From Octopus vulgaris (lineage: Eukaryota), in contig OX597814.1 of the NCBI GenBank assembly GCA_951406725.2, forward strand, positions 68,324,001 to 68,388,000: 64,000 nt of DNA. The letters run 5' to 3'. Under the pieces are notes generated by a model, which was not told the DNA's origin, searched no databases, and was given only the letters and a program-made list of their open reading frames with translations. Every line of letters starts with the position of its first letter. Within the stretch, counting starts at the first letter, position 1. Below are positions 5,793-42,360 of the stretch, piece by piece. A program made the position numbers and the translations under genes.

Positions 5793-5793
5793 A

Positions 5794-5909
<116 letters not shown>

Positions 5910-8446: not shown

Positions 8447-8983
<537 letters not shown>

Positions 8984-9153: not shown

Positions 9154-9193
9154 AAGAAATTACCGGTTTCGCGTGTAGCTTTTCAAATTTCTT
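9154..9193 (-). ncRNA. Minimal hammerhead ribozyme (inverted pLTR copy)
   Basis: Reverse complement of 12657-12696. Confidence 0.75.
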
Positions 9194-9539
9194 GTGACGT
9201 TATGTTTATATTGCATGGAGTTATCGTTGTATTTATTTTCAGGAGATTTCTAAATAAGGGGAGGTAGTGAGTGATTTCTTCCGGTGTAAGGGAGATAATC
9301 GCTTAAATTTTTTTTTCTTTTTCCCTTGTTCATTTCTCTGTGTCAGTATGTTCGGATGGTTTTTCCCTTTCCCTTGTTAATTTCTCTGTGTCAGTATGTT
9401 CGGATGGTTGAGTCTGTGTTTGTACTTTTCAATGAAGAATGTTTCCTTGTTCAGTCTCATTTGTGTTGATGATCCGAAAGCACATTGGTAAAATGGGAAG
9501 ATTAAAAATTGTGGCAGTAGTTGCTTTGCGCATTTCTCA

Positions 9540-10214
9540 ATGTGGGAGAAAAACATGGACTTCTTCCAAAAATATAGTGAAACCTTCAAAAATGAATTGG
9601 GTACAAATAATCCCTTCCTTAAGAAAATTACAATAAATAAAAAAGAAAAACCTAACAACCCACGAACAACCCCCAACTATCCTCCATACACTAAAAACAG
9701 AAATCACCCACAACCAACCTTTACAAACCACGCTAGACCTAACAGGGAACTAGCTGACAGAGGACGCGTCTATGAAAGAAATTACACCAAAAACAGAACA
9801 AACCAACAACATCCTAATACCAGACCCAACCACCATACAGCACAATACGACACTAGGATAAGAAATACACCACACACAAATCACTACTACCCCATGAACC
9901 AAAACTTCTGGTCCCCACTAAACACAAGACAAACGCAAAGAATCACTATGTCAAGCAACATCCCACATACAAGAAGTTCGAAACAAAAATATTTCCCATA
10001 CGGAAATTTTACACACACCACAAGCATTAACAACCATAGATTCCCACACACACACAACGATCGGAGGCAACAATACCACCACTCCCCCGACCAAATACCA
10101 CACAACCTCACAGACAACTCATACAAACAAAATTACACCCAACATTTTTTAGCCAGGGACCAGGGACACCAGGACACAGGCTGGAACCTAGTAATAAGGA
10201 AAAACCAAAGATAA
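9540..10214 (+). CDS. Upstream low-complexity (N/H/P/T/R-rich) ORF of the PLE, probably 5'-truncated by the inversion
   Basis: 224 open codons beginning at the inversion junction and overlapping the RT frame, which is -1 relative to it. Confidence 0.5.
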   Translation: MWEKNMDFFQKYSETFKNELGTNNPFLKKITINKKEKPNNPRTTPNYPPYTKNRNHPQPTFTNHARPNRELADRGRVYERNYTKNRTNQQHPNTRPNHHTAQYDTRIRNTPHTNHYYPMNQNFWSPLNTRQTQRITMSSNIPHTRSSKQKYFPYGNFTHTTSINNHRFPHTHNDRRQQYHHSPDQIPHNLTDNSYKQNYTQHFLARDQGHQDTGWNLVIRKNQR

Positions 10215-12475
10215 TCAATCTTTCAACCAAACCTCTTTCTAACATAAAAATTGACATCCTCGCAAAAGGGCTCAAATTTACACCAACTCCACGCAGAGCA
10301 AACCTAAATGAACTCAAGGATAATATAACAGAATTTTGCAGAAAATTAAGACTAGCAGAAGCATCAAACAGTTTCAATACTGAAGATGAATCACTAGTCA
10401 AGAACAAAAGTGAACACATCCCACACAGAGGAAGAAATAAAGATCTTGACGAATTCTGTAACCACATTGAGAACTTCCCTACCATACTATACATAAACAG
10501 AAAGCTAACCCAAATTTTAACACTACACAATGGAAAGAACTGATAGAACTCCAAAATGATGAAGATATAACCATTAAGGAAGCGGACAAGGGAAATGCAG
10601 TTGTAATAATGGATACATCATACTACAGAAATCTTGTAATTTCCTTGCTTGATGAAGACCTACATTATGAAAAAATTACCAACTACACCCCACAAAAAAT
10701 AATGAAAACTCTATCTTCACTAATTAAAACCCATGAAAAGGAACTGACAACCAAAGAGATTGATTTCCTAACAAACTTTAAATGCAAACCTAGCCTTTTC
10801 TATGGTCTGCCAAAAATTCATAAAAGTCAAATTATAAATGAAACCATTAAAAAATCACCAAAGACATACATACACACACCTAATCCGGGGGACCTAAAAC
10901 TACGACCCATTGTAGCTGGCCCAACCTGTGAAACACACAGACTAAGTCTACTTATGGACATCCTCCTGAAACCCTTCCTTAAACATATCGATAGCCATAT
11001 CAGAGATGACTTAGATATGTTAAACCACCTTCCAAAAAAAAAACAAGGAAGAAACAATCCTGGTTTCATTTGATGTAGTAAACTTGTATACCAGTATACC
11101 TCACAATTATGGACTGGAGGCAATACAGTTCTGGTTAGACCAATTTCCGGAAGAAATACCAAAAAGGATCAGTAAGGAATTCATTACTAAATCAATTGAA
11201 TTCATCCTACACAATAACCACTTCATGTTTGACAATACATTTTACCGTCAAAAATCCGGAATTGCTATGGGTACAAGGGCAGCACCAGTCATTGCGAACT
11301 TAACAATGGGATACATGGAAATAATCATTTACCAGGAATCTCTATCAATCTTTGGAAACTCCCTCTCTCAATACATAAAAGAGAATTGGAAACGATTCCT
11401 AGACGATTGTTTCATTCTCTGGAATGAAAACATAGATAAACTCCAAAAATTTAAAAACCTATTGAACAGCATAAACCCAAATATACAGTTCACAATGGAA
11501 TACAACCAAAATGAGCTCCCGTTCTTGGATATACTAATTAAAAAAATTAACCTCAAAATAGAAACAGACATTTTTTACAAAGCCACAGACGCCAAACAAT
11601 ACCTTCTTTTTAATTCATGCCACCCAAGACACACTAAAACAAACATCCCCTTCAACCTTGCAAGAAGGATATGCACAATAGTGTCAGAACAAAATACCAG
11701 GAACTTTAGACTGCAAGAACTCAAAAACACCCTAATTGACAGACATTACCCAGCTCAACTCATAGAGGATGGGATTAGACGTGCAACAGAAATCAACATA
11801 GAAACTTTAAGAAAAGTTCAACACAACAACACACCTTCCCCGAAAATACTACCTTACATATCTACATACAACCCCAGAAACAAAGAAGCCTTCACCATCA
11901 TCACCCAGAATTTAGCAATACTTCATAAAAACCCAAAATTAAAGGAAATTCTAAACATACACCAAATCATTAAAAGCTACAAACAGCCTAAATCACTTAA
12001 AAAGATTCTCACAAAGGCAAAATTGTCTTCTAAAATTACGGATGCAAAAGTAAAAAAATGTGGTAGATCGAACTGTGCAACATGTCCTAACCTATTGGAA
12101 GGATCAGAATTCTTCTTTAAAGAGGGACAGAAATTCAAGATCAAATCTAATTTTACTTGTGCCTCTGAAAACATAATTTATGTCATTAAATGCTCGGGCT
12201 GCCACCAAGACTACGTGGGTTCCACGGGACTATCACTCAGGCGTAGATGCACACTGCATCGACAACAGATTGCATTCCCAGAATATAGAATGATACCTTT
12301 TAGTGAGCACATTGAGAAATGCGCAAAGCAACTACTGCCACAATTTTTAATCTTCCCATTTTACCAATGTGCTTTCGGATCATCAACACAAATGAGACTG
12401 AACAAGGAAACATTCTTCATTGAAAAGTACAAACCCAGACTCAACCATCCGAACATACTGACACAGAGAAATTAA
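10151..12475 (+). pseudogene. PLE RT plus GIY-YIG ORF with two frameshifts (about 10500, and the A-run at about 11035-11043)
   Basis: IINLS..LAKGLKFTPTP, KEADKG, FYGLPKIHK, RPIV, SFDVVNLYT, GIAMGT, RFLDD, LPFLD, CGRSNCATC and IIYVIKCSGCHQDYVG. Confidence 0.92.
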
Positions 12476-12656
12476 CAAGGGAAAGGAAAAACCATCCGAA
12501 CATACTGACACAGAGAAATGAACAAGGGAAAAGGAAAAAAGATTTTAAGCGATTATCTCCCTTACACCGGAAGAAATCACTCACTACCTCCCCTTATTTA
12601 GAAATCCCTGAAAATAAATACAACGATAACTCCATGCAATATACACATAACGTCAC

Positions 12657-12696
12657 AAGAAATTTGAAAAGCTACACGCGAAACCGGTAATTTCTT
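12657..12696 (+). ncRNA. Minimal type I hammerhead ribozyme, U3-A8 core variant
   Basis: aagaaat-TTGAAAA-gc(tacac)gc-GAAA-ccgg-TA-atttctt. Stem I is 7 bp, stem III is the palindrome ACCGGT, and the cleavage triplet is GUA. Confidence 0.8.
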
Positions 12697-12955
12697 TAAA
12701 AAATTTTAAAATTATGTCATTTTAAGGAAAGGAAAAAAATTTTTCCAATATTCTCCAGACATTTTGACACAAATATATATATTTTTTAACATTTAAGCCT
12801 TCTGTCGTTTTTTCACACTTTACTATTTTCTTATATATATATATATATATATATATATAGCCTTTTTCTATTTGCAATATGCATTTTCGTTGATTTTTCA
12901 TATTTTACCCTTACATTTCCACGTGTATCTTATATTTCTTTTCGTAACATATTTC

Positions 12956-12990
<35 letters not shown>

Positions 12991-13007
12991 TATTTGCAAA
13001 GGCTTCT

Positions 13008-13138
13008 CTTTGTAAATACTGATAGGGCACAGAAAGTGTGTCAATAGCCAGATGGAGACGATGCTCTCCTGGGCTACAACCTACAGTAGCATCCACCCTT
13101 AGTAGTTAGTCACATTTAGTTGGCAAATATACTTCACA
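13008..13138 (+). repeat. Structured repeat 'X', 3' part (direct repeat of 15331-15433 and 34150-34258)
   Basis: Shared sequence ctttg(t/c)aaatactgatagggcacagaaagtgtgtcaatagccag...ctcctgggcta...gcaaatatacttcaca. Confidence 0.85.
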
Positions 13139-13390
13139 TTGTCGTGCAGCTACTGTTTATACCTTTTTACACTTTTTCGAGATCAGTGACTTTTCGTCAC
13201 TGGAAAAAGGTAGTGATTTTTACCTCTTTCGGGAGAATTTTTGATTTTGGATTCTACGTTTTTTTGTTGCTGCTACTGAGTGAGGTCGTTTTCATCCGTG
13301 TTTTCTGTTGATTTTGAACTGTTGTTTTTGTGAACTGTTTCTTTTGTGTCAGTTATTTTCCCCTGTTAACTGAAATTTTTTCTTGCCTTT

Positions 13391-15230
13391 GTGACGCTGA
13401 TCCAGAAGGACCCAAGCAAGGGAGATAACATTAGTAACTATAGGCCCATAACTCTGCTTAATGTAGAGTTAAAGATTTTGGCCAAGGTGTTAGCAAAAAG
13501 GTTGACGGCTGTCGTGGAGAAGCTTGGTGGGAAGGCCCAGACTTGTGCAATACCAGACAGGTCGATCCAGGACAATCTTCATCTCCTCCCCAACACCTTA
13601 GAGAGGGTAGGTAAAAGGATGGGCATTGGTCCACTTAGACCAAAGTAAAGCATTCGACAGGGTAGACCACCGGTACCTGGGGGCTGTCCTCAAAGCGGCT
13701 GGGATAGGCCCTGGCTTTCGCAGGTGGAGCTCCGCTATGTACGGCGGCATCAAGTCCACCGTCCAGATAAACGGTTACCCAACGGAGCCGTTTTCGATCA
13801 AGCGGTCTGTTCGTGAAGGATGTCCCCTGTCTCCGATTATGTATGTTCTGTCACTGGAGCCATTGCTGTGGTGGCTGGAGACGTTAGGCGGGCAACCATA
13901 TTGAGATTGGATACGGTAAGTTCACTTCTGCTTATGCGGATGACGTCACACTCATCGTGTCTAAAGAAGCACAACTACCTCATGTAAAAGATGCTCTCCG
14001 AAGATACGAAGCGATGGCAGGAGCAAAGGTTAACAAGAACAAGTCCATTGGTTTGCGCCTTGGCACCTGGAGGAACAAGCCGATATCATCCAGTGTCGTC
14101 GGACACTGGACAGATGATCCTGTTAAGTTGCTTGGAGTTTGGTTTGGTTCAGACTCCCAAACAGAGAAGAATTGGAGCGAGGTACTGGATAAGGTGGAGG
14201 CCACAGTACGGAAGGTCCGGAAGGTCTCTGTCCTTGAAGGGTAGAGCGGAGGTGGTGCAGGTGTTTATAGCATATGTAATCACCTGCCGCCTGTCCGTTG
14301 TGCCTTGCTCCAATTTTTGGCTAAACAAGCTGGTACGACTCCTCTTCCGCATTTTGTGGAGACGGGGAAAGCCACTTGTGAGGCGCTCCGTATGCTGCCA
14401 AGAACCACTAAAGGGTGCTTGGGGATGCCCTGGCCAATGATGCGCAGACATGCGTTGAGGCTGAGACATCTCTGGTGTGGAGTCCGTTGGCGGAGGAGTT
14501 CTTGCCACGACCGACTTCTCTGGAGAGATTTAAACCCGATTTCATTAAAAGACGTAAGCTGACTTTATGGCAGAAGGAGTGCCGTCAGGCACTCTGGCTG
14601 ATCCACAAGACGGGCAAAGCCGGCTGCGGGAATACCGTTCAGCATGCTTTTGTAACATGTCGGGAGCTATCTAGCTTGATAAGTTACGTAGAACGTGTTG
14701 TCGCACCTGGGACGAGTACAGCTGTCGGGTGGATCTATAATAAAGATGATACCGCCACCTGGACTCACAAAGGAAGGTAAGGCTTGTTTTTACTCTACGG
14801 TTGCAGTACTAAAAGAGTGTGTATGGAGGACCAGAATGGAAGGTTTTGTGACAGGTTCCTTCATCTCCGGCCCCGGTTTGCTATATTACTTCAGATGCCA
14901 TCTGAAGAGCAACATTGAGTTGGAAAGGAAGACCCTGCCACCGAGTGATTACGAAAAACGAGGGAAGGATGTGGGGCCTTATAGGCTGCCGGGTTCAAAT
15001 TTTTAACCTGCATTTTCCCTTTTTCTTTTTAGCTTATGTTATGTTCTCTAGTTTTATTTTTAAAAACACAAAAGTTCTCGTTGTAAAGGCAAAAGTAAGC
15101 CAAGGTTTCGTTTATGTCATATTACAATTAAATTTTTAAAAGTCTCATTCGAACACATGTAACATTTTTGTATTTGTCTTGTTATGTCCTTTTCTATGTT
15201 AGATCTCATGATCATAATAAAGATTTTATC
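13391..15230 (+). mobile_element. Internally deleted L1/Tx1-like LINE (RT region and 3' UTR)
   Basis: NYRPITLLN, LDQSKAFDRVDH, SVREGCPLSP and AYADD. Homologous to 30226-32443 and ending in AATAAAGAT. Confidence 0.9.
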
Positions 15231-15246
15231 GAAGACCAGTGATTGT

Positions 15247-15294
15247 CGTGCGCTGACGATGACAGGTAAATACTCAGAAACCCAGGTCCGTGCG
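15247..15294 (+). ncRNA. Type I hammerhead ribozyme at the start of repeat X
   Basis: cgtgcg-CTGACGA-tga(...)tca-GAAA-cc(ca)g-GTC-cgtgcg. Canonical core with a GUC triplet. Confidence 0.75.
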
Positions 15295-15875
15295 TATCGC
15301 GTCAGGTCGACGATGGGAAGGATGGTTTCGCTTTGCAAATACTGATAGGGCACAGAAAGTGTGTCAATAGCCAGCTGGAGAAGATGTTCTCCTGGGGCTA
15401 CAAGCTACATTTAGCAGGCAAATATACTTCACAAACACACACACACACAGAGGGAGGGAGAGAGAGAAAAAGTAGGAAGATAAATTTTTTTCAACACATA
15501 AATACTGAACAGTATATATAATAGATAAAATCCTTTTAAGGACAGAAAAATATTTCTACTTCTTATACGATATGTTTCAACACTTCAAAAGCAATTATGT
15601 TTATTTACATATGACGTAATATGTACGTATGTATGTATGTGGGTGTGTATGTATGTATGCAATGTATGTATGTATGTATGTATGTATGTATAGATAATTA
15701 TAAAACGGAGAAAAAAGACAAGAAACAAACAACAACACGAGGACTGGCACATGTAAAGTATTAATAATGCGTTCAGAGAAACAAAAGAGTGGTTGCTTTA
15801 CGTTTCGGAAACAGGAAGCTTAGGGAAGTCCAAAGGAAAAGGAAGAAGGAGGAAAAACACTGCCAACAGTCGACG

Positions 15876-16980: not shown

Positions 16981-18017
16981 TGGTCAGAGGTTAAGGACAG
17001 ATGAGAATTCTGTAATACAATAATTGTATTCTACCAGTCCCAAGTTGAATTCCAAGTGTTGGTAAATTTAACGAGGCAAATGCCATTTATCTCCCCCTTG
17101 ATCTCTGACGTCATCCAAGATGACGCCAACCAAGATGGTGTGAATCAGCTAGAAATAGCAACCCTAATACTTTTAAATCAGATCCCAATGCTGGATGTTT
17201 AAGAATCAAATGAAGAGCAGATTTTCAATCCTTTGATCAACCTGATTCCAAAAAGGTCTAATATGTCTATGTAGAGCAAATGTAGATTGAGATACAGGCC
17301 TCCTAGACGGGCCGTCAGAATTTCGCTTTTACTATGATGGTAGGCAAAAGTTGCAGAGTGACTAAAAGACCGAGTGTTTCTTGCGCTGGTCTTTATCAAC
17401 AGATAAGTTGGCACTTACCAAACATCATTATTAAAGCATCAAAGTTAAATTAGTTTCTTGAAAGTCTTAAGTAATCGACATGCCGAAAAGGCAGTAAAGA
17501 CTATATAAAAAACAGAATCTCAAACACGGAACATAAATTCTATGCAGGAATGAGCAGACGTTCGTGTACTTATGAGTGTATACATGTCTCTGCGTAACTA
17601 TGTATATTTGCATGCATCTCCACTTTTGTTTATGTAATTGTCCGCATACATTTCTGTTTATTCCCGTGCGTTTTTGTATTCTTGGTATGTTTTAATGTAC
17701 ATTATATATATCCATGTCATTGGCTTCATGCATAAATGCATCTGACTACAAACCGTTACGACAATGTTATTTGATTAGATGAGCCCAACTTTGCTGAAAC
17801 ATTACTTTTTGATGTCACTGTCCACACTTTTGGATTTTGTGCACACTCTAAATAAAGGACGTCTGTAGCCGTAAACACAGACGTGGAGATACACTAGCTC
17901 GCGCACGTACACAGACGCACACACACATACAACACATATCTACATATATATATAAACAAATCTCTTTCTCTCTCTCTCTCTATATATATATATACATACA
18001 TATATATATATATATAA

Positions 18018-18129
18018 GGACACAGGAAATGTGTCAAGGCTGACAGGAAGCGTTGATACTTCCTAGGGCTAAATAGCGGTGGTGTGATTCCCTGATGGGA
18101 CTGTCACGTTAAGTTGACAGTATACAACT

Positions 18130-25789: not shown

Positions 25790-27512
25790 TCTGGTGGTAA
25801 GATAAGCCAGGTCGATTACCTCCTCATCAGACAACGAGATAGGATGACGCTCGCAAATGCGGAGTCTTTCCTATGTGAAGAATATACAGCGCAACATAGC
25901 CTACTAATTAGTGACATCAGAAATAGGAGTAGAAAGACTCTGAGAAATAGACCATACTGGAAAAGAAGGTTACGGAAGCTCAAAAACCCAGCAAACTAGC
26001 AAAAGTTTAGAGGCACTCTACTGGAAGCCTCTTATGATAGAGAGGAGGAGGAAGAGGAGGAGGATGGGACATATAGCTTAGAGAACAACTGGAAGCTCCT
26101 GTGGGCAATTTACTGGGGGTTGCTGACCAAATCTGTGGATGGTGTAAAGTCCCAGCTAGGCCAAGGGTGACATGGTGGTGGAAGGAGGTGGACAGTGTCA
26201 CAGGTTTACATAGCAAGAGGAATAGCAGAAGGTAAGAAGTTTGCCAATGTTCTACAGCGTGAGTATCAGAGGCGTGAGGTGTTCAAGATTGCAAAGCAGT
26301 GTATCAGAAAGAATAGGTGGTATGTGAGAAATGTGTGCAAATGGATAATGGTATACTTGTACTTAGTAATTCAGAGAAGAAAGATTCATGAAGATGCCAT
26401 TATGAAAGGTTAATAAATGATTGAGAGAAGGAGAGTCTTTCAAATATCGAACCAATTGAGGGACCAGTCAACAGAGTTGATAGTAGTATAATAGATAAGG
26501 CAACTAAAGATATGAAGGCTGAGAAAGTCCATGAACAATCGGGTATCACTGCCGAAATTATTAAAATATCAGGCAGTGTGGGATACAGCTTAGACATTCG
26601 CCTGGTTAATCGGGTTATTCAGGAAGGGATTATCCTCAAAGACTAGTGTAGTAGTATTATAGTTAGTTGCTACAAAGGCAAAGATGATGTCTTAAAAACA
26701 ATTACAGAGGTATTAAACTGCTGGACCAGGTCATGAAAATTACAAAGAGAGTTATTGCTTAACTGATTAGGAATATAATTAAACTAGATGAGATGCAGTT
26801 TTGTTTATTCTTAGGAGATGTACTACAGATGTCATCTTCCTAGTGAGATAGTTGCAAGAAAAGTATTTGGCCAAAAGTGAACCCATGTACTTAGCTTTTG
26901 CCGACCTGGAGAAAGCTTTCGACAGGGTTCTCCGCTCTCTTATCTGGTGGTTTCTAAGGAATCTAGAAGTAGAGGAGTTCCAAGTATAGAAGCAAAACCT
27001 GGAATCAAAGGGCCTTGAGTTAACCTAGCAAAGATCAGAGTTGTTGTTAGCAAGAAACATAAGATTTTGTTTCCATCAGGTAAATGGCTATGCTCAATAT
27101 GTGGGTAAGGAATGGGAAGAAATTTCATTCGCTGCACGCAGAGTAAACTATGGACACATAAAATACGCAGTAGAATCACAGATAGATTAACAAATAAAGT
27201 CGCTTTCGTATTTGACAGATGTGCAGGAACAATAAGCACTAAGAGTACAAGGTACTCTGTGAAGCGTCCAGAAGGTTCTCATAAGGTAGTAGAGAGTTTC
27301 TGCTACTTAGGTGATCAAATCAGTAACGGTGGTGAATGCTCTGAAAGTATTGTTTCTAGAAAAAGAATAGGATGGAGGAAGTTCAGGGAACTACTACCTC
27401 TGTTGGCAAAGGAAGGTCTCTCTCTTACAGTGAAAGGTAGATTGTATGGATGTCTGTGTACGAACGGCTATACTCCATGATAATGAGACATGGGCTCTAA
27501 ATGCGGAGGACA
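25790..27512 (+). mobile_element. Degenerate RTE-clade LINE (partial related copy at about 24228-24440)
   Basis: IDYLLIR, RVTWWW, TTDVIFLVR.LQEKY, AFADLEKAFDRV, a Cys-rich CSICG...C...WTH insert, VESFCYLGD and GWRKFRELLPLL. Confidence 0.8.
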
Positions 27513-27515
27513 TAC

Positions 27516-27556
<41 letters not shown>

Positions 27557-27759
27557 CTTTATATATATATATATATACAGACATCCATATAATCTACCTT
27601 TCACCGTGAGAGAGAGAGAGAGAGACCTTCCTTTGCCAACAGAGATAGTAGTTCTCTGAGCTTCCTCCATCCTATTTTTTTTTCTAGAAACAATACTTTC
27701 AGAGCATTCACCACCGTTACTGATTTGATCACCTAAGTAGCAGAAACTCTCTACTACCT

Positions 27760-28730
27760 TATGAGAGGAAGGATATTATCCATTTAATGAAAAGCTTCGG
27801 ACTTAGTATAACTATAGATACTAACATAAAGGTTGTCAATTTCTTAGACGTTTCCTTAGATCTAAATAAGAACATTTATAAGCCTTATAGGAAGCCCAAT
27901 GATAGACTTCGTTATATTAATGTAGGTTCATGCCATCCCCCTATAGTATTCACAACTTTAGTTAAAAATACTAGTAAGAGAATTTCTAGCCTCTCCTCCG
28001 ATAAGGACATTTTTAATAGCGTTGACCCAGTATATAATAAGGCTTTAAAAGATAGTGGTTTTAGCGAAAAAATAAAATATACACCTGTTACTAACCCCAA
28101 AAGTATAGATGAGGAAAAATAGAAATAGGAAGATCATCTGGTTTACACTCCCTTACTCACCCGAGGTGACCATCAATATAGGTAAATATTTCTTAGTACT
28201 GATAGATAGATATTTTCCAGTTAACCATACTTATAGGAAGATATTCAATAAACAAAATTTAAAAATTAGTTTTAGTTCAACTACCAATTTTAAAAATATA
28301 ATCGCACATAACACAGAAAAACCACAAGAAAACAGCTGTTCATGCAGGAATAAAAAATTGTGCCTGCTAAATGGAGCTTGCATGTCCGAGACCATCATAT
28401 ATGAAGCTACCGTGGACTCTATAACTACTAAAGACACCGTTTCGACGAAGAAATACGTGGGCCTTACAGAGGGTAATCTCAAGGCCAGGTTCAATAACCA
28501 CACCTTGAGTTTTAGGCACTGGAACAAAATGGTAAGCGACAAAATTATCCAATCATATATGTCATTAAAAGATAAAGGTGTCAATTACAACATCCATTGG
28601 AAGATTTTGGCCTAATGTAAGCCCTACACAAACGGCAGCGGAAGGTGCGGTCTATGCGACATGGAAAGATGGCTTATCTGGAAAAGTAGCTTAGACCCTA
28701 CTACATGTCTAAACTCAAGGACAGAACTTT
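27760..28730 (+). mobile_element. Penelope-like element fragment (RT thumb plus GIY-YIG; a third PLE lineage)
   Basis: VNFLDVSLDL, YKPYRKPN, S.HPP, RKIIWF..PYS, CSCRNKKLCLLNGAC, IIYEATV..YVGLTE and CGLC..E...LNSRTEL. It is cut off by the L1-like ORF2. Confidence 0.85.
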
Positions 28731-28752
28731 TCGAATAATTTTCTTTTTTTCG

Positions 28753-31700
28753 ATGATTAAGTTAGGTTGTATAAATGTGCGTGGAATGGGGTCGAAATGG
28801 AAACAGGCTTGTTTTCGGGACGACCTCATTTCACATAGAATCGATGTAGCTATTGTTACCGAGTCCAAGATGAAAGGACCCCAAGCGTTCTCACCACTTC
28901 TCAATGGTTACGAGAAATTTATTTCTCCTAGCCGGGAGGGAGGTGCAGGCGTGGCAGTTCTTTTCAGGAAGAACTTGGACTTACAGGTAAGTACTGTCTT
29001 TCTGGACCCAGAAGGTAGGCTGGTTGTCCTAGATGTGACGAACGTGAGTAAGCAGTCCTTCGGGTTGGTGGCTCCTAATGGACGTGGGCAGACCGGTTTG
29101 TTTCGGGAACTGGAGCACTTTCTAGTGACGTCCAAAACGGTAGTCTTGGTAGGGGATTTCAACACCATTCTCGATGCGCGGGTGGCTGGTGTAGGCTCGA
29201 GCGATAGGAAGGGGAATCCTGGCCTCAAGGCTCTACTAGCGAGCTTTAATCTAGTAGACCGTTTTCGACTGGATGAGCCGAACGTTGGACGTGGAGTAAT
29301 AACGACGGCTCACGCAGATCGTACATAGATAGAGTATTTGTTAAGGAACGAGATAGGAATAGTGTTAGCTGTCCACAATCCTCTGTTGTGTCTTACACGG
29401 ATCACAAACTTGTGACGTGTGAGGTACAGGTAGATAAATGCCATAGACAAGGTCCCGGTACTGGAAAATGAACAAGTTTATTTTGACTTGTGAAGCTTTC
29501 CGTACCCGGATTAAGGAATTAGTACAGAGGGCATTATGTGGCACCATCATTAATAATAGATGGTGGCTCGCCCTCAAAAGAGCCATCCGTTTGGAGTCCA
29601 TTAGATTTAGCAAGCAGCTAAGTTTAGATAGGACTAGAATAGAGGGCGAATTAGTTAAGAACTTAGACGAGGCTATGGAATCTGGCTGTGCATCCGGAGT
29701 GTTGGCAGCGAGAGCGGTATTGTACCGTCACCTCAACGCCAAGCACGAGGGGTGTAGAGTCAGAGCTAAGTTACGTGCAGGAAAACGAGAAGGTATTAAC
29801 GTTGCCGGATGGGCCCGTCGTGAGGAGAGTCAGAAGGGCAAAAAGTCCTGTATTATGTCCTTAACTGACGAGCAGGACCGCAAGATCTATGGACAGGAGG
29901 AGATGCAGAAGGTCCTTCACCAGCATTTCGCACGGCTGTTTGGGGGCGGTGGTCCGCTCGAGCGTGGGGAGACCTTAAAGGACTTCCTAGCTGGTGGGAC
30001 TCGGCTCTCGGCAGGTGAGGCGGAGTGCTGTGAAGGATCGATCTCTCCCGCGGAGGTAAGAGGGGTTATGGCCGAGTGCGCCGGGGAAAAGTCGCCGGGG
30101 TTGGATGGTCTGCCCTATGAATTTTATTGTTGTATGCCGGACTTGTTCGGGGACATACTGGCAAGCGTCTATGCAAACTGGCAACAGAATGGGAGGATTC
30201 CCAGCTCTGTGAGTCGGGGAGTTGTGACGCTTGTCCAGAAAGACCCGAGCAAGGGGGACAGTATTAGTAATTATAGGCCCATAACTCTACTTAATGTAGA
30301 GTTTAAGATTTTGGCCAAGGTTGACGGCTGTCGTGGAGAAACTTGTCGGGAAGGCACAGACATGTGCAATCCCAGGCAGGTCGATCCAGGATAATCTTCA
30401 CCTTCTCCGCTACACTATAGATAGGGTCGGGAAATTAGACGGCAAAGGAGGGGCATTGGTCCATTTAGACCAAAGTAAAGCGTTCGATAGGGTAGACCAT
30501 CGGTACTTGGCGGCGGTCCTCGAAGCGGCTGGGCCCTGGCTTCTACGGGTGGATCTCAGCTATGTACAGCGGCATCAAGTCCACAGTCCAGATAAACGGT
30601 TACCTAACGGAGCCGTTTTCGATCAAGCGTTCAATTCGTCAAGGGTGCCCCTTGTCCCCGCTTCTGAATGTTTTGGCTCTTGAGCCATTACTGCGGAAGC
30701 TGGAGAAGTTGGGAGGCAACCCTAATGAAATCGGATGCGGTAAGTCTGTTTCTGCCCATGCGGATGACGTCACCCTCATCGTGTCCAACGGAACACAGCT
30801 ACCTCGGGTGGCAGGTGCTCTCCATAGATACGAAGCGGTGGTAGGGGAAAAAGTTAACAGGGACAAGTCCATCGGTTTGCGCCTCGGCACCTGGAGGAAC
30901 AAGCCGATACCGTCCAGTGTTGTTGGACACTGGACGGATGGTCTTGCTAAATTGCTCGGAGTCTGGTTTGGTCCAGACTCCCAGACGGAGAAGAATTGGA
31001 GCGAGGTAACGAGCAAGGTGGATGCCATAGTACGGAAGTGGTCCGGAAGGCATCTTTCCTTGAAAGGGAGGGCGGAGGTGGCACAGATGTTTATAGTCTC
31101 TGTCGTCACCTACCGCCTGACCGTCGTGCCTTGCCCCGATTCGTGGTTAAACAAGTTGGAACGACTCCTTTTCCGCTTTTTGTGGAAAGGAGGAAAGCCA
31201 CTTGTGAGACGCTCCGTGTGTTGCCAGGAACCGCTAAAGGGTGGACTGGGGATGCCTTGGCTAATGATGCGCAAGCATGCGTTGAGGCTGAGACACCTCT
31301 GGTGTTACCTGAAGGATGATAAGGTGTGGAGTTCGCTGGCAGAGGAATTCTTCTCGCGACCGGCCTCTATGGAGGGATTTACACCCGGTCTCATTAAAGG
31401 ACGTAACCTGACTTCATGGCAGAAGGACAGGCACTCTGGCTGATCCACAAGATGGGCAAGGCCGGCAGCGGGAATACCACCTCGGTGTTCTATAAAGGGC
31501 TGGTAGAGGGAAAAAATGACGACGTCCTAGGAAGGGCTCTGGGGTTCGATGAGGATCAACTCTGCAACCTGTTTAAGAAGACTTTCAGGTCGGGGTATTT
31601 GGATAATTACCAAAAATCCCTGACCTGGCAGTGCTATAGGAATGCATTACCTGTTCGCGAGATGTTATCCAGGCACGGAATGTCAGTGCCACCGACGTGT

Positions 31701-32099
31701 CCAAGATGTGGGTTGGACGATGAAACCGTTCAACACGCTTTTGTACAATGTCGGGAGCTGTCAGGCTTGATAAGTTACGTGGAACACGTGTTGTCGCATC
31801 TGGGACGAGTACAGCTGTCGGCTGTATCTATAATTAAGATGATACCGCCAACTGGACTCTCAAAGGAAGGTAAGGCTTGTTTTTACTGTACGGTGGCAGT
31901 ATTGAAAGAGTTTGTATGGAGAACTAGATTGGAAGGTCTAGTGAAAGGGTCCTTTATCTCTGGCCTCGGTTTGTTAAAATACTTCGGATATCATCTGAAG
32001 AGCAAGATGGGGTTGGAGAAGAGGAGCCTGCCACAGAAAGAGTATATGGAACGTTGGAAGGATGTGATGAGAAAGGTGGGTGAGAGTAACCCAGCTTAA
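28753..32099 (+). pseudogene. L1/Tx1-like ORF2 (APE endonuclease, RT, C-terminal zinc finger), several frameshifts
   Basis: MIKLGCINVRG, VLVGDFN, YTDHK, KSPGLDGLPYEFY, NYRPITLLN, KAFDRVDH, RQGCPLSP, AHADD and CPRC...ETVQHAFVQC. Confidence 0.93.
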
Positions 32100-32567
32100 T
32101 CATCGAGGAAAGGAAAATCAGCTGCTGGGATTTATAGACTGCCGGGTTCAAAATTGAAACTGGTGCCTTGCATTCCCTTTCACTGTACATAACTGTTTAA
32201 AATAAAGAAATAATAAAAAAAAGAAAACATACGCACTAAAAGTTCTCGTGATAAAGGCAAAAGTAAGCCAAGGTTTCGTTTCAAGGCAAAGTAAGCCAAG
32301 TTTTCCTACAAGTTACATAAAATTTTATTTTTGTAATTTTTATAATTTCATTCGAACTCGCATAGCATTTTTGTAATTGTTTTGTCCTGTAATGTCCCAA
32401 TTCTATGTTAGATCACTTGATCATAATAAAGATAAATCCAATCGAAAATCGCTTTTTTTTTGGTGTCGGAATTTTTTATTGCGTTATTGGTGTGTCGAGG
32501 TTGTGAGTTCGAGTTCGTTGGTGGAGGCCGTTGAGACGTGGTGAATTTTTTTGGAGATGTTTCGAAA

Positions 32568-33870
32568 ATGCAAGCCCAGACGTATGCGGAAGCAGCAGAC
32601 AGAGGCTTGACTGCGAGTGAACTAGAGCTGGAAGAAGTGGTAGTCGAGAAAGAGACTTTGGAAAAATATTTCGACGGCTTGAAGTAGGAAGATGATTGTG
32701 TAAGAGTCACACCGTCTGAAGAAGAAGCAAAAGAAGCGGAGAAACGTATGATAACATACAGAACGTGGAGCGTGGCTTCAAAGAAAATAGAAGTGGCAGA
32801 GACGGAGGAAATAGAGAAATGTCTGCAGGGAATTGAGGGAGAACCTACCTTTTACAAACGAGGAAGAAAATACGCTACAGTGGTCGTCCATTTTAAAAAT
32901 GAAGATGAAGCAAGAAGGAATGTCACGAAAATTTTGAAATCTGAAAGATGGACATTATTACCAAGTTACTGCGGAAAGAGTGCAGTAAGAATAAGAATCG
33001 GTAGGATTTCGCCGGAGCTTAACATGGAAAGGATTCTAGCGGCAGTGGTTTTCAACTGCAAGGAAAGCGTTGAGGTGTTGAAGGTGGAAAGGTCAACAGA
33101 AGTAAAGTGGTGGGGTTATGCGGTGCAGGCATTGGTCCACATTACTATGCCAGACCTCTATAACATCCCGGAGGAGTTGGTGTTCCCCGACGAGACACGT
33201 CTTAGAGTCGTGGTGGAGGAGAGACCCCCAGTGTGTTACAAATGCAAAATAAGAGGCCACATGAAGGATGTGTGTCCGCTGGGAGAAGTGCAGGAGAAAC
33301 GAAGGAGTGGAAAGATACGTGTGTAGAGGAGGAAATCATCACTACAGATAATGTGGAAAGTGGTGAAGAGTTGGAGAAAGAAAATAGAAAGAGAACGCGG
33401 GTGAAATCACCACCCAAAGAACAAAAAGAGGAAGAAAAAAGCGAAAAACAAGATTACTGACGAGAGGGAAGACCGAACGTGCGAAGGGAGTGATGCAGAA
33501 GCAAAAGCAAGTGAACCAGCAAAATTAACTGCAGAGGAAGAATGGGACAGAAGAATGGAAGAGCAGTTGAAAGGTCTATAAGAGAAGAGGAAGACCCAAA
33601 GGAAAGAAACACAGAGTGGTAATGTTATATTTCAAGGACAAAAATACGGAAAAGATGTTGGCAGGTAGGAAAAGTTTAATTAGAGTAAAGTTGAACCCAG
33701 AAATATATGATGACCAGTGGAAGGCGGTAATCGTGGAGAGAGAGAGATTGGAGAAAATGAGAGATGATTATAGTGTATGTGAATGATTATATGTACGTTA
33801 TGACACTTTGCCAGCTATTGTGGATCAGGAGAGGTTGATAGAATACCTGACAGATGAACGACCAGTATAG
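32568..33870 (+). pseudogene. L1/Tx1-like ORF1 (gag-like, CCHC zinc knuckle) lying downstream of ORF2
   Basis: ATG at 32568 (MQAQTYAEAA) is in frame with the 32748 ORF after one stop. It contains CYKCKIRGHMKDVC (CX2CX4HX4C) and an E/K-rich tail. Confidence 0.7.
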
Positions 33871-34071
33871 CAGAACTGTGTTTTAAATGAAGCTGCGAGT
33901 TATGGGGGGCTCGTAAGCCGTTCCATCTAATCCATTATAAATATTCATTTCACTTCATATTTTTCAATTTTTTTTATTATATGTACCCCATGTCCTGATT
34001 GTGATGTCCCCTCTTAATTCGGGCCTTAGTGCCTATAATAAAGATAAATCCAATCGAAAACCGGTGATTAC

Positions 34072-34116
34072 CGTACGTTGACGAGAGGCAAAAACCTCGA
34101 AACTATAGCCTGTATG
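34072..34116 (+). ncRNA. Degenerate hammerhead at the start of repeat X (second copy)
   Basis: cgtacg-TTGACGA-gagg(caaaaa)cctc-GAAA-ctatag-CC-tgtatg. It is positionally homologous to 15247-15294 and has two core changes. Confidence 0.55.
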
Positions 34117-34317
34117 TATCACTTAGGTTTTCGAGAGGGGATGACCTCCCTTTGCGAATATTAGAAGGCACAGAAAATGTGTCTAAAGCCAGCTGGAGAC
34201 GATGATCTCCTGGGGCTAAAAGCTTCAGTAACACCCACCCCCAGTGGCTAGCCACATTGAGATGGCTAGTACACTTTATGTTATCATTGGATATGTTATA
34301 CAAAATTCATATTTTAT

Positions 34318-34407
34318 ATCTCTGAAGAGCAGAAGCGTTGTCTATAAATGCTTATCGATATAGGATTTCATAATAGGGACAACTCATCTGTGAAACGATC
34401 GTAAGAT
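34318..34407 (+). ncRNA. Type I hammerhead ribozyme with an extended stem II
   Basis: atct-CTGAAGA-gcaga...(gttgtc/gacaac)...tctgt-GAAA-cgatcg-TA-agat. Canonical core, palindromic stem III and a GUA triplet. Confidence 0.75.
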
Positions 34408-34637
34408 GCTTTAAATATTTAATTCAAAACTTTTAAACTGTCATATACATTATATATTTATATTTATACATATTTACATATATTTTTTTACATATTTATA
34501 TTTATTTATTTATATATTCTTAATACAACTATTTTGCCACGTTTATATCTTTCTGAGGAGTTTTGATATTGATTTCCTTTCCTAATGTTAATAATAGTAT
34601 ATTAAAAAATATGTATGTATATGTATATATATGTATA

Positions 34638-34735: not shown

Positions 34736-34813
<78 letters not shown>

Positions 34814-34816
<3 letters not shown>

Positions 34817-36430
34817 TTGCGGTCAAAAGGTTCAGAACGGCATTGTTTTTGTCAGAAAAGTAGGTATAAGTTTTTATTAAAGTTGTCTCTTCACAGACAA
34901 TAAATACAATATTAATTGGTATTGTCTGAGATTTTGGTGTAATTTGAGTGGATAATACAAAAGTTATGGATGATATAGTGATTTACTGCAAAAACTATGG
35001 TGGCCAAAATGATCAGAACGATTGAAAAAATAACAAAATAATCAAAAAGTGACGGAGAATGCTGGAATTATTTCATATTTAGTGTGAAGCCCTTTAGCTT
35101 CAATCAAAGTTTGATATTTTCGACTGCATGGGGAAATGAAATTTTCATTTTCTTGCTGGGTGACCTTATTCCATTCTTCCTGAAGGACATTCCATAATTG
35201 CTCGGTTGTTTTAGGATTTCTGGCTTTCAAACGTTCTCCTAGAATATTCCACACATTTTCAATAGGATTGAGGTCTGGGCTTTGAGCAGGCCAATCCATA
35301 ACAATAACCTTTTCAGCCTTGAGGAAGTTCATGACCACCTTAGCCTTGTGACATGGGGCATTGTCCTGCATGAATATAGGTGGTCGCTTAGTTGAATTTC
35401 TCAGCACAGGCAAGACGTGATCTTTTACATGTTGTTTATAAACTCCTGCATTTACCTTTCCATGTAATCGCAGCAAAGGGCCCACAGCATCTCCAGATAT
35501 CATCCCCCAAACCATGACACTTCCTCCACCGAATTTAAATCTAGTCTTAAGGCATTTAGGTGACAATATTTTACCTGCTTTTCGACGAACGTACCTTTTC
35601 CCATCTGGGCCAAATAACATAGACTTAGATTCATCACTGAAATGCACCGTTTGCAATTTTTCTTGAGACCACAACACATGTCCGGTTGCAAAGGTAAGAC
35701 GACACTTTTTATTCTTGGAGCTGATCAGTGGCTTCACTGCAGGTGCTCTTGCTTGTAGGTCATGTTCAACTAAAGGACAAGACACAGTTTTTCGAGATAC
35801 AGTTTTCTTCAGTACAATGCTCATTTCCCAAAAAACAGCAGCAGCAGTTTTAAATCTGTCCTTTTTAACCAACTTTACCGTAGCACGATCTTCTCTCTTG
35901 GTCGTTTTTCTTGGCCTACCTGTAGACTTTCTTGCTTCACACGAACCACAATCATCGTAGACCTTAAGAATACCGTGAGCAACACTTTTTGACTTGTTAA
36001 CAATCTTTGCAATAGACCTAATACTTAAATTATCCTTCTTTCGAAGCTTAATAATCTGTTGACGAATTGGTAACGGAGTAAGTGGCATTATATTAACAAA
36101 GTACACTGCAAATATTCTTACTAATGTTTAGTAAACGAACTGTCACGTAAACAAATTCAAAACATTAGAGTTCGACGGTTAAATATACTAAAACATGGAG
36201 TAAAAGCAACCGTTCTGATCATTTTGGCCGCCATGGGTTTTGCAGTAAATCACTAAATCATCCATAACTTTTGTATTATCCTCTCAAATTACACCAAAAT
36301 CTCAGTTAATAACACATAATATCGTATTTATTGTCTGTGAAAATGATAGAATATAAAACAGCTTTGATAAAAACTTATACCTACTTTTCTGACGAAAACA
36401 ATGCAGTTCTGAACATTTTGGCCGCAACTG
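34814..36430 (-). mobile_element. Full-length Tc1-like transposon with long IR/DR-type TIRs, TA target
   Basis: TA|CAGTTGCGGTCAAAA...TTTTGGCCGCAACTG|TA. TIRs are about 210 bp, with an inner repeat ggccaaaatgatcagaacg at 35002-35020 and its complement at about 36211-36229. Confidence 0.95.
35042..36088 (-). CDS. Tc1-family DD34E transposase
   Basis: Uninterrupted ORF with GRPRKT, FSDES, GGGSVMVWG and QDNAPCH. There are 34 residues between the second D and the E of SPDLNPIE. Confidence 0.93.
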   Translation of the reverse strand: MPLTPLPIRQQIIKLRKKDNLSIRSIAKIVNKSKSVAHGILKVYDDCGSCEARKSTGRPRKTTKREDRATVKLVKKDRFKTAAAVFWEMSIVLKKTVSRKTVSCPLVEHDLQARAPAVKPLISSKNKKCRLTFATGHVLWSQEKLQTVHFSDESKSMLFGPDGKRYVRRKAGKILSPKCLKTRFKFGGGSVMVWGMISGDAVGPLLRLHGKVNAGVYKQHVKDHVLPVLRNSTKRPPIFMQDNAPCHKAKVVMNFLKAEKVIVMDWPAQSPDLNPIENVWNILGERLKARNPKTTEQLWNVLQEEWNKVTQQENENFISPCSRKYQTLIEAKGLHTKYEIIPAFSVTF

Positions 36431-36825
36431 TATATATATTTATATATATATATTATATATATGATCTGTGTGTAATTACCATAACAAATAACAGGGAGAA
36501 TGTAATGTATTCCGAAAATCTATCGCCCAAAGTACAGTGCATTGATTTTTACTTATTAGAAAGAAGAGTGATGGAAGTTGTAAGTCAATCGTAATCGTGA
36601 GAGCACATGAAGCACATGAATCACAGAGATCGATGACGACATTTAATTTTAAAGCTTATTGTTTTTATCTTCGCTGCGAGAAGTGTGACGAATATAATCA
36701 TATCATAAGACAAGTCAAGTGGACATAATTGATTGAACTTCTCACTTTTGTCACAAAATCATTATGACATTAGAGAATTAAAAAAAATTTTGTGCTCAGT
36801 GAAAAATGTTGCCATAGTTTGTGGC

Positions 36826-37214
36826 AACAAAAGCAGCCTAGCATTCAAAGAGATCATCGTGTTGCATCATCTGAAACCACCTTTCTGCTAGTTCTTTGAT
36901 CCCACACAGATACTAGTTCTTGTCCTTCGAGATGAGCTTCCCTGCTGAAGCTTCCACCTCCTTTTAGTTGATGAAGAGTGGCGGGTGCAGGAAGTGAGCT
37001 ATATTTTCAAGAGGAGAGCTTCTGTGAAGGAGTTCTTTGCCTCGAAGGACAAGAACTGGTGTCAGTGTGGGATCAAAGAACTGGCAGAATGGTGGCTTCA
37101 GATGGTACAACACGATAGCCTCTACTTTGAATGCTTGGATGCTTTTGTTGCAGCTTGACGAATAAAGCAAACAAGTTCCCAAAATATTGCAAAATTCTTG
37201 ACTCAACACAGTAA
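36826..37214. mobile_element. Mariner-derived fold-back element
   Basis: About 36826-36930 is the inverse of about 37041-37151. The right arm reads KEFFASKDKNW..GIKELAEWW...DSLYF, a mariner C-terminus. Confidence 0.7.
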
Positions 37215-37336: not shown

Positions 37337-37409
37337 GCCGAAATAGCTCAGTTGGGAGAGCGTTAGACTGAAGATCTAAAGGTCCCTAGTTCAATCCCGG
37401 GTTTCGGCA
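37337..37409 (+). tRNA. tRNA-Phe (GAA)
   Basis: GCCGAAATAGCTCAGTTGGGAGAGCGTTAGACTGAAGATCTAAAGGTCCCTAGTTCAATCCCGGGTTTCGGCA forms a cloverleaf with a GAA anticodon. A TTTTT terminator follows at 37426-37430. Confidence 0.93.
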
Positions 37410-39519: not shown

Positions 39520-42360
39520 CAAAACGCTTTTGACCTCATACCGCGTTCATGGATCCTGAAATCGCCGTTCATCTTCAAAATTTCATCCGTAATTACAAAT
39601 TTTCTGAAGCAAAATATGTTATAGTGGAACACGAATCTCCAATTATATCACTCTAATGGAGTACTAGCTTCAAACAATATTAGCATCAACTGGGGAATTT
39701 TCCAAGGTGATTGACTTTCGCCTTTAAAATTTTTTCATAGCTTTAGTACCTCTTAGATGTGAATTTAACAGAACAGGCTATGGTCATAAGATTGAAAAAA
39801 AAAAAGCCTTAAAACTCTACGGCACAAAAAGTGATGAGTTTGAAGGCTTGTTACATACTGTAAAAGCATTCAGTGATAACATCGGAATGGAATTAGGTCT
39901 TGATAATTGTGCCAAGGCCACTTTCGAGAAAGGGAAATTGATAACACCAAATTCAGTCGTATTAAGTATTGAAACAGATACAAGAACTTGAGCAAGAACA
40001 AACCTATAAATACCTAGGTATAAAAGAAGGTTCTGACATTCAGCGAACGATTAGGAAGGAATGCTATAGAATATGAGTTCTGAAAACTGAGCTAAATGCA
40101 CATAACAAGGCATTCGCCATAAATTCCTTAGTTGTTCCAGTTGTTACTTAAAGCTTCAATGTGTTGAATTGGAATATCCGTAAAAGAAAATCGACGGAAA
40201 AAATCATAAGTTGCTGATTTGTAATAAAATATACGCCAAAAGACAGACGTGGATCTGATTTTACTTTCCCAGAGCTCTAGGATCTAGAAGCTTAATCTAC
40301 AATTGGTCTGGCCACATATCTTGAAACACCTAAGACTGGATGTTAAAACTCGTTGAAAAGCACGGGAGGCGTAAGAAGCTTTATTCTATCTTGGAAGAGA
40401 GGAAATAATTTTCTATTGATTTCATGCTGAATATCCTGAAGGAAATGTGGCAGCTGTTGCTGCAAAGAAAGTAACATAAATGGCAAAGGCAGTAAAATTA
40501 ATTGGCTGGTAGGTTGGAGCAGAAATCTCTGCATGGAAAATATGTGACCCGTTGCAAGCATGCATATGTTGACCAGAAGCATCTTCATCAAAGGCTACGA
40601 AGCATGGGCTCAAGGTAAATAGAAAAGGTTTCATGTTAGCTGCTCAATATCAAAACTTCTTGACCCGGAACTACCAAGTCAACGTGATGAAAAATTGAAT
40701 AGATCTAGAGTGCCGGTTCTGCAATGAGGAAATTGAAACAATGGAGCACCTAATCTTTGAATGTAAATTTTAATCGGTAGTAAAGTGTAAATCAAAACAT
40801 GACACTGTTTGATATGCCAGCATCATAAAATCAAAATTGGTGACAAGTAGTATAAGCATGACTTTGAGACTGTAGCTGAGGGAGAAAATGGGATCTTTTC
40901 TAAAAGATGGACAGAATTTTCTACTTAACTAAATAATTTGAAACTTCGTATACTCTTGGAATGTGTCAAAAGAAAACATTAATTTCGAAAAGTTTTTTTG
41001 AGAAAAATGTATTTTGTAACTTTTAGGTAGTTTAATTCTTCGAATTTTAACCAATCGTATTCTCTGTTTTGACCTCAATTCATTTTTTTCTGCCGTGTTA
41101 TTCGTCCTTATCCATGTCTTCTGTCTTCAAAAGCTTCTCGCATGTTTATTTCAATGTCATCCCAGACTTACGGAACGATTACCTGTGTGTGTGTGTTTTT
41201 GTTGTGTATGTGTGTGCGTGTGTGTGTTTGTTGTGTGTGTGTTATTGTTGTGTATGTGTGTGTGTGTGTTTGTTGTGTGTGTGTGTTATTGTCGTGTATG
41301 TGTGTGTGTGTGTTTGTTGTGTGTGTGTTATTGTTGTGTATGTGTGTGTGTGTGTTTGTTGTGTGTGTGTGTTATTGTTGTGTATGTGTGTGTGTATTTT
41401 TGTTGTGCATGTGTGTGTCTTTTTGTTGTGTATGTGTGTGTGTGTTTTTTGTTGTGTATGTGTGCGTGTGTTGTGTATCTCTTAAATCGAGGAATTTCGT
41501 CGCCCAATAAAAATATTAACGATATTTTTTGAAATTTGATATCGTTAATATTTTTATTGGGCGACGAAATTCATCGATTTAAGAGATACACAACACAGGC
41601 ACACATGCACAACAAAAAAAAAACACACACACACACATACACAACAAAAAGACACACACACATACGCACACATACACAACAAAAACACACACACACATAC
41701 ACGACAATAATACACACACATACACGACAATAACACACACACACAACAAACACACACACACACAACAATAACACACACACACAACAAACACACACACGCA
41801 CACACATACACAACAAAAACACACACACACAGGTAATCGTTCCGTAAGTCAGGGATGACATTGGAATAAACATGCGAGAAGTTTTTGAAGACAGAAGACA
41901 GAAGACATGGATAAAGACGAATAACTCGGCAGAAAAAATGAATTGAGGTCAAAACAGAGAATACGATTGGTTAAAATTCGAAGAATTAAACTACCTAAAA
42001 GTTACAAAATACATTTTTCTCAAAAAAACTTTTTGAAATTAATGTTTTCTTTTGACACATTCTAACAGTATACGAAGTTTCAAATTATTTAGTTAAATAG
42101 AAAATTCTGTCCATCTTTTAGAAAAGATCCAGAAAATGTAACGAGTCTTTGGGACTTTCCGGCACATACAGACAGTACCATCAACGCGAATACGCCGGTT
42201 ATTGTGGCAAAAGACCAAAATAATATCTGTTTATTGATTGACAGGAGTATCCAATGTGGTCATTATATTTCGGCAAAAGAATTTGACAAGCTCAGCAACT
42301 ATAAAGATTTTGCTCGTTGAAGAAATCAAGTATTGAGAAGAGCATTGTCGCTATGCGAAC
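39520..42360 (+). mobile_element. Decayed R4/Dong-type LINE related to 49829-53640, split by a fold-back element
   Basis: Colinear with about 51615-53465 (NAFDLIPRSWILKS...NTNLQLYHSNG). It resumes at GENV..LWDFP after 42130. Confidence 0.85.
40891..42130. mobile_element. 1.24 kb fold-back (palindromic) DNA element with an 8-bp TSD
   Basis: GGATCTTTTCTAAAAGATGG...CCATCTTTTAGAAAAGATCC. The TSD AGAAAATG is at 40883-40890 and 42131-42138, and the arms meet at about 41526-41538. Confidence 0.93.

Follow-up and report, generated by a model that had tools for sequence, protein, structure and literature searches.

An ORF1 that lies downstream of an ORF2 may belong to a retrotransposon of reversed design or to a second unit inserted behind the first. 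This question is raised by a locus in a 64,000-nt stretch of Octopus vulgaris DNA (GenBank assembly GCA_951406725.2, contig OX597814.1, positions 68,324,001 to 68,388,000; hereafter, the window, numbered from its first nucleotide), in which open reading frame (ORF) 2 of a long interspersed nuclear element (LINE) is followed by an ORF1 cassette that is bracketed by a 26-bp direct repeat. We favor, with a probability of roughly 55%, a tandem insertion of an ORF1-only, non-autonomous unit (unit 2) behind a 5'-shortened canonical LINE (unit 1) over a single element with the reversed ORF order. The window is AT-rich and contains many microsatellites and abundant retroelement fragments; the parts relevant to the question are the following.

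27767..28738, plus strand: Penelope-like element (PLE) fragment, comprising a reverse transcriptase (RT) end and a GIY-YIG-like region; the 5' limit is approximate and the C-terminus is severed at the ORF2 junction
28736..28752, plus strand: TAA and a 14-nt T-rich spacer ahead of the ORF2 ATG, a possible remnant of an ORF1-stop/ORF2 linker
28753..32099, plus strand: ORF2 of unit 1, with apurinic/apyrimidinic endonuclease (APE), RT and zf-RVT domains (Pfam), colinear with relatives of ~1150 amino acids (aa)
32100..32422, plus strand: 3' untranslated region (UTR) of unit 1, with a small hairpin (from folding) at its end before AATAAA; 69% identity to 14974-15213
32423..32448, plus strand: copy 1 of the 26-bp repeat, with AATAAA at 32425 followed by 18 nt
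32449..32567, plus strand: leader of unit 2, 119 nt, T/G-rich in sequence
32568..33870, plus strand: ORF1 of unit 2, with two RNA recognition motif (RRM)-like domains, a CCHC knuckle, a charged linker and a conserved C-terminal domain
33871..34034, plus strand: trailer of unit 2, 164 nt, with a GGCC-N-GTGCC hairpin at 34022 that adjoins repeat copy 2
34035..34060, plus strand: copy 2 of the 26-bp repeat, with AATAAA at 34037
34061..34286, plus strand: repeat X, structured and non-coding, and either the LINE's distal 3' tail or a target repeat in its own right
34316..34408, plus strand: hammerhead-like motif, with a core and three stems recognized by pattern
13001..15433, plus strand: comparison locus, consisting of a partial X (13001-13145), a T-rich segment, a second ORF2 copy, its 3' UTR and X (to 15433)

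The two copies of the 26-bp string are identical, as claimed in the original prediction, and the identity extends by no base on either side. This is the longest exact repeat in 28700-34320, where the maximum over 200 dinucleotide shuffles is 15 bp; elsewhere in the window, the string is approached, with 3 mismatches, only at 6457 and 7991, in the A-tailed ends of a different element. The cassette begins 18 nt past the AATAAA at 32425, and X begins 18 nt past the AATAAA at 34037. When the cassette is removed in silico, the outcome is an ORF2-3' UTR-to-X junction that keeps register with the one at 15214-15245 apart from a 4-nt indel and a few substitutions, which bears out the earlier observation that such a removal recreates the junction near 15215-15245. 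The exact repeat is compatible with a target-site duplication (TSD), with a shared end, or with both, and is best read as a shared end plus a duplication, whether X is a tail or a target; in both cases the cassette would stand as a later unit at the AATAAA.

The cassette has the anatomy of an ORF1-only unit, namely, a complete ORF1, no ORF2, its own leader and a LINE-type 3' end; this copy of unit 2 is ORF1-only. The ORF1 is complete at both ends and decayed (about 3 frameshifts and 2 internal stops): its N-terminus resembles those of the closest relatives, and its C-terminal end near 33870 coincides with that of two of them (P0119 and P0122). No ORF2 remnant was detected in the trailer; the best hit (E 0.029) falls in X. 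A short ATG frame (MKL...) at 33887-33916, 16 nt past the ORF1 stop, is faintly reminiscent of an ORF2 start and probably reflects chance. The leader of unit 2 shows no significant match to the T-rich segment 13140-13388 (z 0.83), and a comparison of the two leaders with each other was not significant either.

An exhaustive protein search with the ORF1 yielded 340 relatives at E<=0.001, and the RT query also gave matches, whereas word-index searches with a piece of the ORF1 and a piece of the endonuclease gave none, and a PDB sequence search with the ORF1 returned nothing significant. The structural model of the 212-aa core, which ends in the CCHC knuckle, has a pLDDT of 87.5, and among PDB structures it is matched best by tandem RRMs (E between 1e-4 and 1e-3; the TM-scores are low). 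The zinc knuckle noted in the original prediction is matched by Pfam zf-CCHC at E 0.0089, under the curated cut-off, and the protein belongs to a ZCCHC3-like Atlas cluster (0.91). This is a type I ORF1 (RRM + CCHC), the type that has been described for Tx1-clade elements (PMC5203782).

To compare gene order, we scanned a genome contig collection and obtained 41 loci, of which 37 overlapping ones (L001-L037, contigs CAXXMW010000002-18) come from one assembly. In these contigs of a bacterial metagenome-assembled genome, intact ORF1-ORF2 LINEs of ~6.4-6.9 kb are arrayed head to tail, and the contigs are likely to be eukaryotic DNA in a bacterial bin. Several subfamilies are present, with similar ORF2 and different ORF1 and UTRs. 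In the RT tree, which includes no labelled Tx1 reference, the RTs of these arrays form the sister group of the clade found in the window (100/99), and the next branch out includes L038; the ORF1 piece from the window finds the ORF1s of the arrays with 22-25% identity (E about 1e-11 when calculated within these loci). In L038 (4422-4534), the ORF2, which is more distant, terminates in an A-run that adjoins a 5S rRNA gene without its first ~20 nt, which suggests 5S targeting; 5S rRNA is a known target of Tx1 families (PMC4494074).

For 51 ORF1 ends, at least 300 nt of downstream sequence is available; every one of them (50 identified by script and 1 by eye) leads to an ORF2, in most cases across a 14-nt linker, and no ORF1-only or reversed unit was found in the 37 loci. 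Each ORF2 in the arrays precedes the ORF1 of the next unit by about 1 kb; because the units stand head to tail, adjacency of ORF2 to a following ORF1 is a normal junction in the sister clade. Reversed ORF order, which had been proposed for this locus, is therefore not supported as the design of an element: the sister clade is canonical, and ORF2-to-ORF1 junctions with this geometry arise in its arrays. The array counts do not represent independent events because the units are copies of a handful of subfamilies. The arrays include 5'-truncated units, and these, together with the array ends, place the 3' end of the unit 11, 12, 17 or 18 nt past AATAAA in four comparisons; at four array ends, the flanks are unrelated (two of these flanks are only 62 and 81 nt long).

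The 3' ends of the relatives have a further feature in common. Of the ORF2 ends that have 900 nt of sequence behind them, all 48 possess a GGCC-N-GTGCC hairpin and then AATAAA, 681-767 nt downstream of ORF2; a further 20 occurrences of the motif lie within ORF2 on the opposite strand and lack AATAAA, and one more is located at a cut locus end. In the 64-kb window, the motif is found once, at 34022, adjoining the second 26-mer, against ~0.22 expected on both strands. The trailer contains no other AATAAA, and therefore the signal of the cassette sits within the 26-bp repeat. Because the hairpin of the clade is present, in its single occurrence in the window, the cassette can be considered a second unit that possesses a LINE-type end of its own and no ORF2. 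The suggestions that the cassette is an ORF1-only, HAL1-like unit and that the repeat is a long TSD or a shared 3' end both fit, in that the cassette has a complete ORF1, the clade hairpin and no ORF2 remnant. The conservation of this hairpin across distant members of the clade makes it a candidate, from the sequence, for a signal that may function in RT recognition or priming. Three 7-mers are common to the cassette tail and the ORF2 3' UTR at similar offsets (p 0.006-0.013; post hoc), and the last 50 nt of the trailer pair with the repeat (p 0.023). Splice-donor-like GTAAG/GTGAG motifs are present in both tails of the window (32263, 32291, 33913) as well as in the ORF1-ORF2 linker and UTRs of the relatives.

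The ORF2 of unit 1 appears, from its domain content, to belong to an L1/Tx1-type APE non-LTR element (one without long terminal repeats) with an APE endonuclease, an RT and a C-terminal zinc-binding domain: PF03372, PF00078 and PF13966 all score above the cut-off, in separate frame pieces. Its closest named RT relative, from Argonauta hians, is 56% identical, and the two ORF2 copies of the window are 85% identical in the RT. The ORF2 is full length but broken, with at least 5 frameshifts and small deletions, as seen from the relatives and from indels against the second copy. It is colinear with the full-length relatives from residue 4 on, and because these ~1150-aa relatives align from their first residues, the ATG at 28753 is the natural ORF2 start. 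An ORF1 upstream of ORF2 in one unit, as is typical of this type of element, was found at neither ORF2 copy of the window. In 28500-28760, comparison with 150 ORF1 relatives revealed no ORF1 similarity (best E 0.035), and the copy in the comparison locus begins mid-RT (13389), without an ORF1.

Upstream, the PLE-like frame remains open until the TAA at 28736-28738, so that the gap to the ORF2 ATG is ~15-25 nt, the position of the breakpoint being uncertain; the predicted start of ORF2 about 20 nt past the PLE breakpoint, with no ORF1 ahead of it, was thus reproduced. The PLE-like ORF has no Pfam match above the cut-off; its Atlas neighbors carry GIY-YIG on 17-27% of the members, and it matches another PLE-like ORF at 11024-12472 (E 4e-5). 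A C-terminal Cys/LNxR motif also enters into this assignment. The spacing of TAA, 14 nt and ATG equals the linker of most relatives, although a stop would fall at any one given position in ~7% of cases by chance; the sequence of the spacer does not match the linkers of the relatives. Because the 5' junction of ORF2 also severs the PLE ORF, it looks like a deletion or truncation scar. Such a scar explains the proximity of the junction to the ATG, the cut PLE ORF, the hammerhead-like motif downstream and the lack of a TSD around the whole block. The hammerhead-like motif, which in its minimum free energy fold is no better than shuffled sequences and is not called by Rfam, would represent the 3' part of the interrupted PLE.

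The window has four copies of repeat X, whose right ends are similar and whose left ends vary, the pattern of a retroposed 3' tail. Both ORF2 copies with a 3' end adjoin X, and their 5' flanks share nothing; the 15-kb copy passes via a diverged version of the repeat directly into X. The copies of X at 34 kb and 15 kb are 72% identical, matching the 69% identity of the adjacent 3' UTRs. X ends 249 nt past AATAAA, a distance similar to the 235-290 nt that separate the two AATAAAs in the 3' UTRs of the relatives. The predicted fold of X has a z of -3.05 and is beaten by none of 200 shuffles; its first stem takes up the last bases of the repeat. In the stem formed by the repeat end and X, pairing holds in 16 of the 18 cells, with one pair altered on both sides, but 246 of 500 shuffles equal this result, the covariation is not significant, and RNAalifold found no two-sided change. 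No Rfam family matched X, a degenerate X pattern had no match in the genome contig collection, and an X profile had none in the 41 fetched loci. An assignment of X as an HDV-like ribozyme was dropped, given that P2, P3 and P1.1, judged by eye, did not fit the consensus. Of the remaining copies, that at 18016-18125 is more diverged (about 60% identity) and lies between microsatellites, and the partial copy starts with a short perfect fold-back of ~17 bp (12985-13025) that resembles a 5' inversion. In our judgement, X is probably the distal 3' tail of unit 1; that it is a separate target repeat is possible and clearly less probable, and its derivation from the 5' UTR of a next unit, which would require two 3' truncations at nearly one point, is improbable.

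Taken together, these observations can be accommodated by the following scenario. Unit 1 would be a canonical L1/Tx1-type LINE whose 5' part, including ORF1, was lost through truncation or later deletion, and unit 2 would likely be a non-autonomous half-LINE that used an ORF2 protein in trans. The RNA of unit 2, ending in the clade hairpin and AATAAA, could have been primed at the matching AATAAA of the 3' UTR of unit 1, such that the 26-bp repeat would comprise about 9 nt of shared end and a duplication or junction of 17-18 nt. X, likely the distal tail of unit 1, would have been displaced downstream by unit 2, and the whole block would lie inside one Penelope-like copy.

Several observations weigh against this scenario. 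The relatives are distant (47-49% identity in the RT and 22-25% in ORF1) and come from a single assembly of non-independent array copies. Their hairpin is separated from AATAAA by 16-28 nt that include a second stem, compared to 3 nt in the cassette, and the ORF2 tails of the window lack the GGCC hairpin. A different hairpin is found in these tails, and therefore the cassette is not a simple derivative or deletion of the family of unit 1 itself. With the 15-kb copy as the reference, the 7-mer test loses strength (p 0.04-0.25), an ordinary alignment that leaves out the repeat reveals no significant similarity between the two tails (z 0.06-0.40), and the pairing of the trailer with the repeat is lost at 70 nt (p 0.63). 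There is no poly(A) at the cassette end beyond four A's, no TSD was found around the whole block (best 5 bp), and the 64-kb window holds one copy of the cassette, which does not amount to a replicating family. Finally, uniform 5' truncation reaches within 25 nt of the ORF2 ATG ~0.5% of the time, a figure to be weighed with the fact that the locus was chosen for its oddness.

The explanation closest to the tandem insertion of an ORF1-only unit holds that unit 2 is a one-off, that is, a canonical ORF1-ORF2 copy of another subfamily that was inserted in tandem and lost its ORF2 by a single internal deletion. All relatives with genomic context are canonical, deletions are frequent within the window, and the MKL frame could be seen as the beginning of a lost ORF2, but the likeness stops after three residues, and both breakpoints would have to hit non-coding stretches of a few tens of bases, so that ORF1 stayed whole and not a single residue of ORF2 was left; we consider this course of events unlikely, albeit deserving of attention. 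The refuting alternative that accompanied the original prediction, namely, that the locus is simply two truncated tandem copies, holds in part: unit 1 can be a truncated canonical copy, whereas unit 2 is whole at both ends and lacks ORF2 internally. At the opposite extreme, the native element might be ordered ORF2, ORF1, X, with the ORF1 of the 15-kb copy lost via recombination between the 26-bp repeats. The flanking of ORF1 by direct repeats, whose excision yields the 15-kb junction, is what such an element would display, but it is a single instance set against a canonical sister clade, the cassette carries a terminal hairpin of its own, and (weak evidence) none of the 22 ORF1-matching proteins that were scanned among the 150 listed, including 7 longer than 500 aa, contains an RT or endonuclease domain. 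We regard this possibility as very remote.

A more radical proposal extends the ORF1-only partner to a split, two-component LINE, in which ORF2-only and ORF1-only elements with a common 3' end each provide the protein that the other lacks; the locus would then result from a joint insertion, for instance by a template jump from the ORF1 RNA to the ORF2 RNA cut at AATAAA. The start of ORF2 within about 25 nt of the 5' junction, so rarely reached by uniform truncation, is the best point in favor of a natively ORF1-less element, and the absence of an upstream ORF1 from both ORF2 copies, the sharing of the terminal 26 nt by the two units and the location of the block in one PLE-like copy are all consistent with it. 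The 13-kb copy is preceded by T-rich non-coding DNA; however, it starts mid-RT and so is uninformative on ORF1. The sister clade has the canonical order in 51 of 51 cases and its arrays contain 5'-truncated units, the distance from TAA to ATG equals the linker length of the relatives (a weak argument in view of the ~7% chance), and the same junction deletes the PLE C-terminus, as a deletion would. The step from an ORF1-only partner to a split LINE would require a natively ORF1-less ORF2 element, and the 5' junction, which also cuts the PLE ORF, looks instead like a scar; this proposal appears doubtful, somewhat more so than the one-off deletion.

The favored reading, tandem insertion of an ORF1-only unit, has parallels among known elements. 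Among these are the sister-clade arrays themselves, which share with the locus the RT clade relationship, a homologous ORF1, the terminal hairpin and the junction geometry, but are all canonical ORF1-ORF2 elements with an ORF1 of 630-700 aa, compared to about 430 in the cassette, a 3' UTR of about 700 nt and no X-like segment. TRE5-A.2 of Dictyostelium, which lacks ORF2 and is mobilized in trans by TRE5-A.1, in a family that forms tandems (PMC5391098), is likewise an APE-RT non-LTR derivative that kept ORF1 and lost all of ORF2, and TRE elements form tandems at one target; it differs in targeting tRNA genes, whereas the only tRNA gene of the window (37337) is 3 kb away, in having an unrelated type of ORF1, and in that trans-mobilization has been demonstrated there and would be only presumed for the cassette. 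HAL1, HeT-A and Ag-Sponge are ORF1-only non-autonomous LINE derivatives with repeated origins via ORF2 loss (PMC5786205; PMC5753468), and loss of ORF2 is recurrent in Drosophila telomeric elements (PMC13534243); these derivatives are reported from the L1, Jockey and CR1 clades, whereas the cassette has a type I ORF1 and comes from a cephalopod. Tx1 elements resemble unit 1 and unit 2 in the APE-RT-zinc finger ORF2 and the RRM/CCHC ORF1, and would also resemble them in the use of other repeats as preferred targets and in sequential tandem insertions; SINEU-3, likely mobilized by Tx1 elements, forms tandem insertions around a TSD (PMC4494074). In Drosophila R1, a double insertion at one site consists of units separated by an identical 33-nt duplication, and tandem units split in this manner include 5'-truncated ones (PMC5932611), but the target is ribosomal DNA, the clade is different and both units are canonical. 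The literature searched contains no half-element from a cephalopod or from the Tx1 clade, nor any split LINE pair; Repbase, Dfam and Bao and Jurka 2010, which lay outside its scope, may hold one.

The rest of the window is rich in other mobile sequences. Older, diverged fragments resembling the same ORF2 clade are found at 803-937 (a weak match), 3043-3306 and 59558-59764 (minus). Two elements that carry an RT and are bounded by long inverted terminal arms (94-98% identity) occupy 5793-8648 and 9013-12838, the latter being PLE-like with a weak GIY-YIG match. Fold-back palindromes surround microsatellites or short spacers at 27277-27766, 36824-37151 and 40891-42130. At 34781-36462, 500 bp downstream of X, lies a Tc1/mariner element whose inverted ends measure ~250 bp and whose DDE transposase frame, on the minus strand, spans 360 aa, and the tRNA gene mentioned above is a tRNA-Phe(GAA) gene at 37337-37409.

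Octopus vulgaris has been reported to possess 13 recently active L1-Tx1 families (PMC13282606). If unit 2 indeed is an ORF1-only LINE inserted in tandem, it would add a cephalopod representative of the RRM/CCHC type to the independently arisen ORF1-only LINEs, and would point to a 3'-terminal hairpin conserved across distant hosts, a result that would be useful in repeat curation rather than surprising. The implications of a split LINE, should one exist, would be broader: it would run counter to the cis preference that is usual for L1-like elements, its halves could be written together into the genome in the order ORF2-ORF1 through a template jump, and the persistence of ORF1-only elements could be studied in a naturally occurring two-component LINE.

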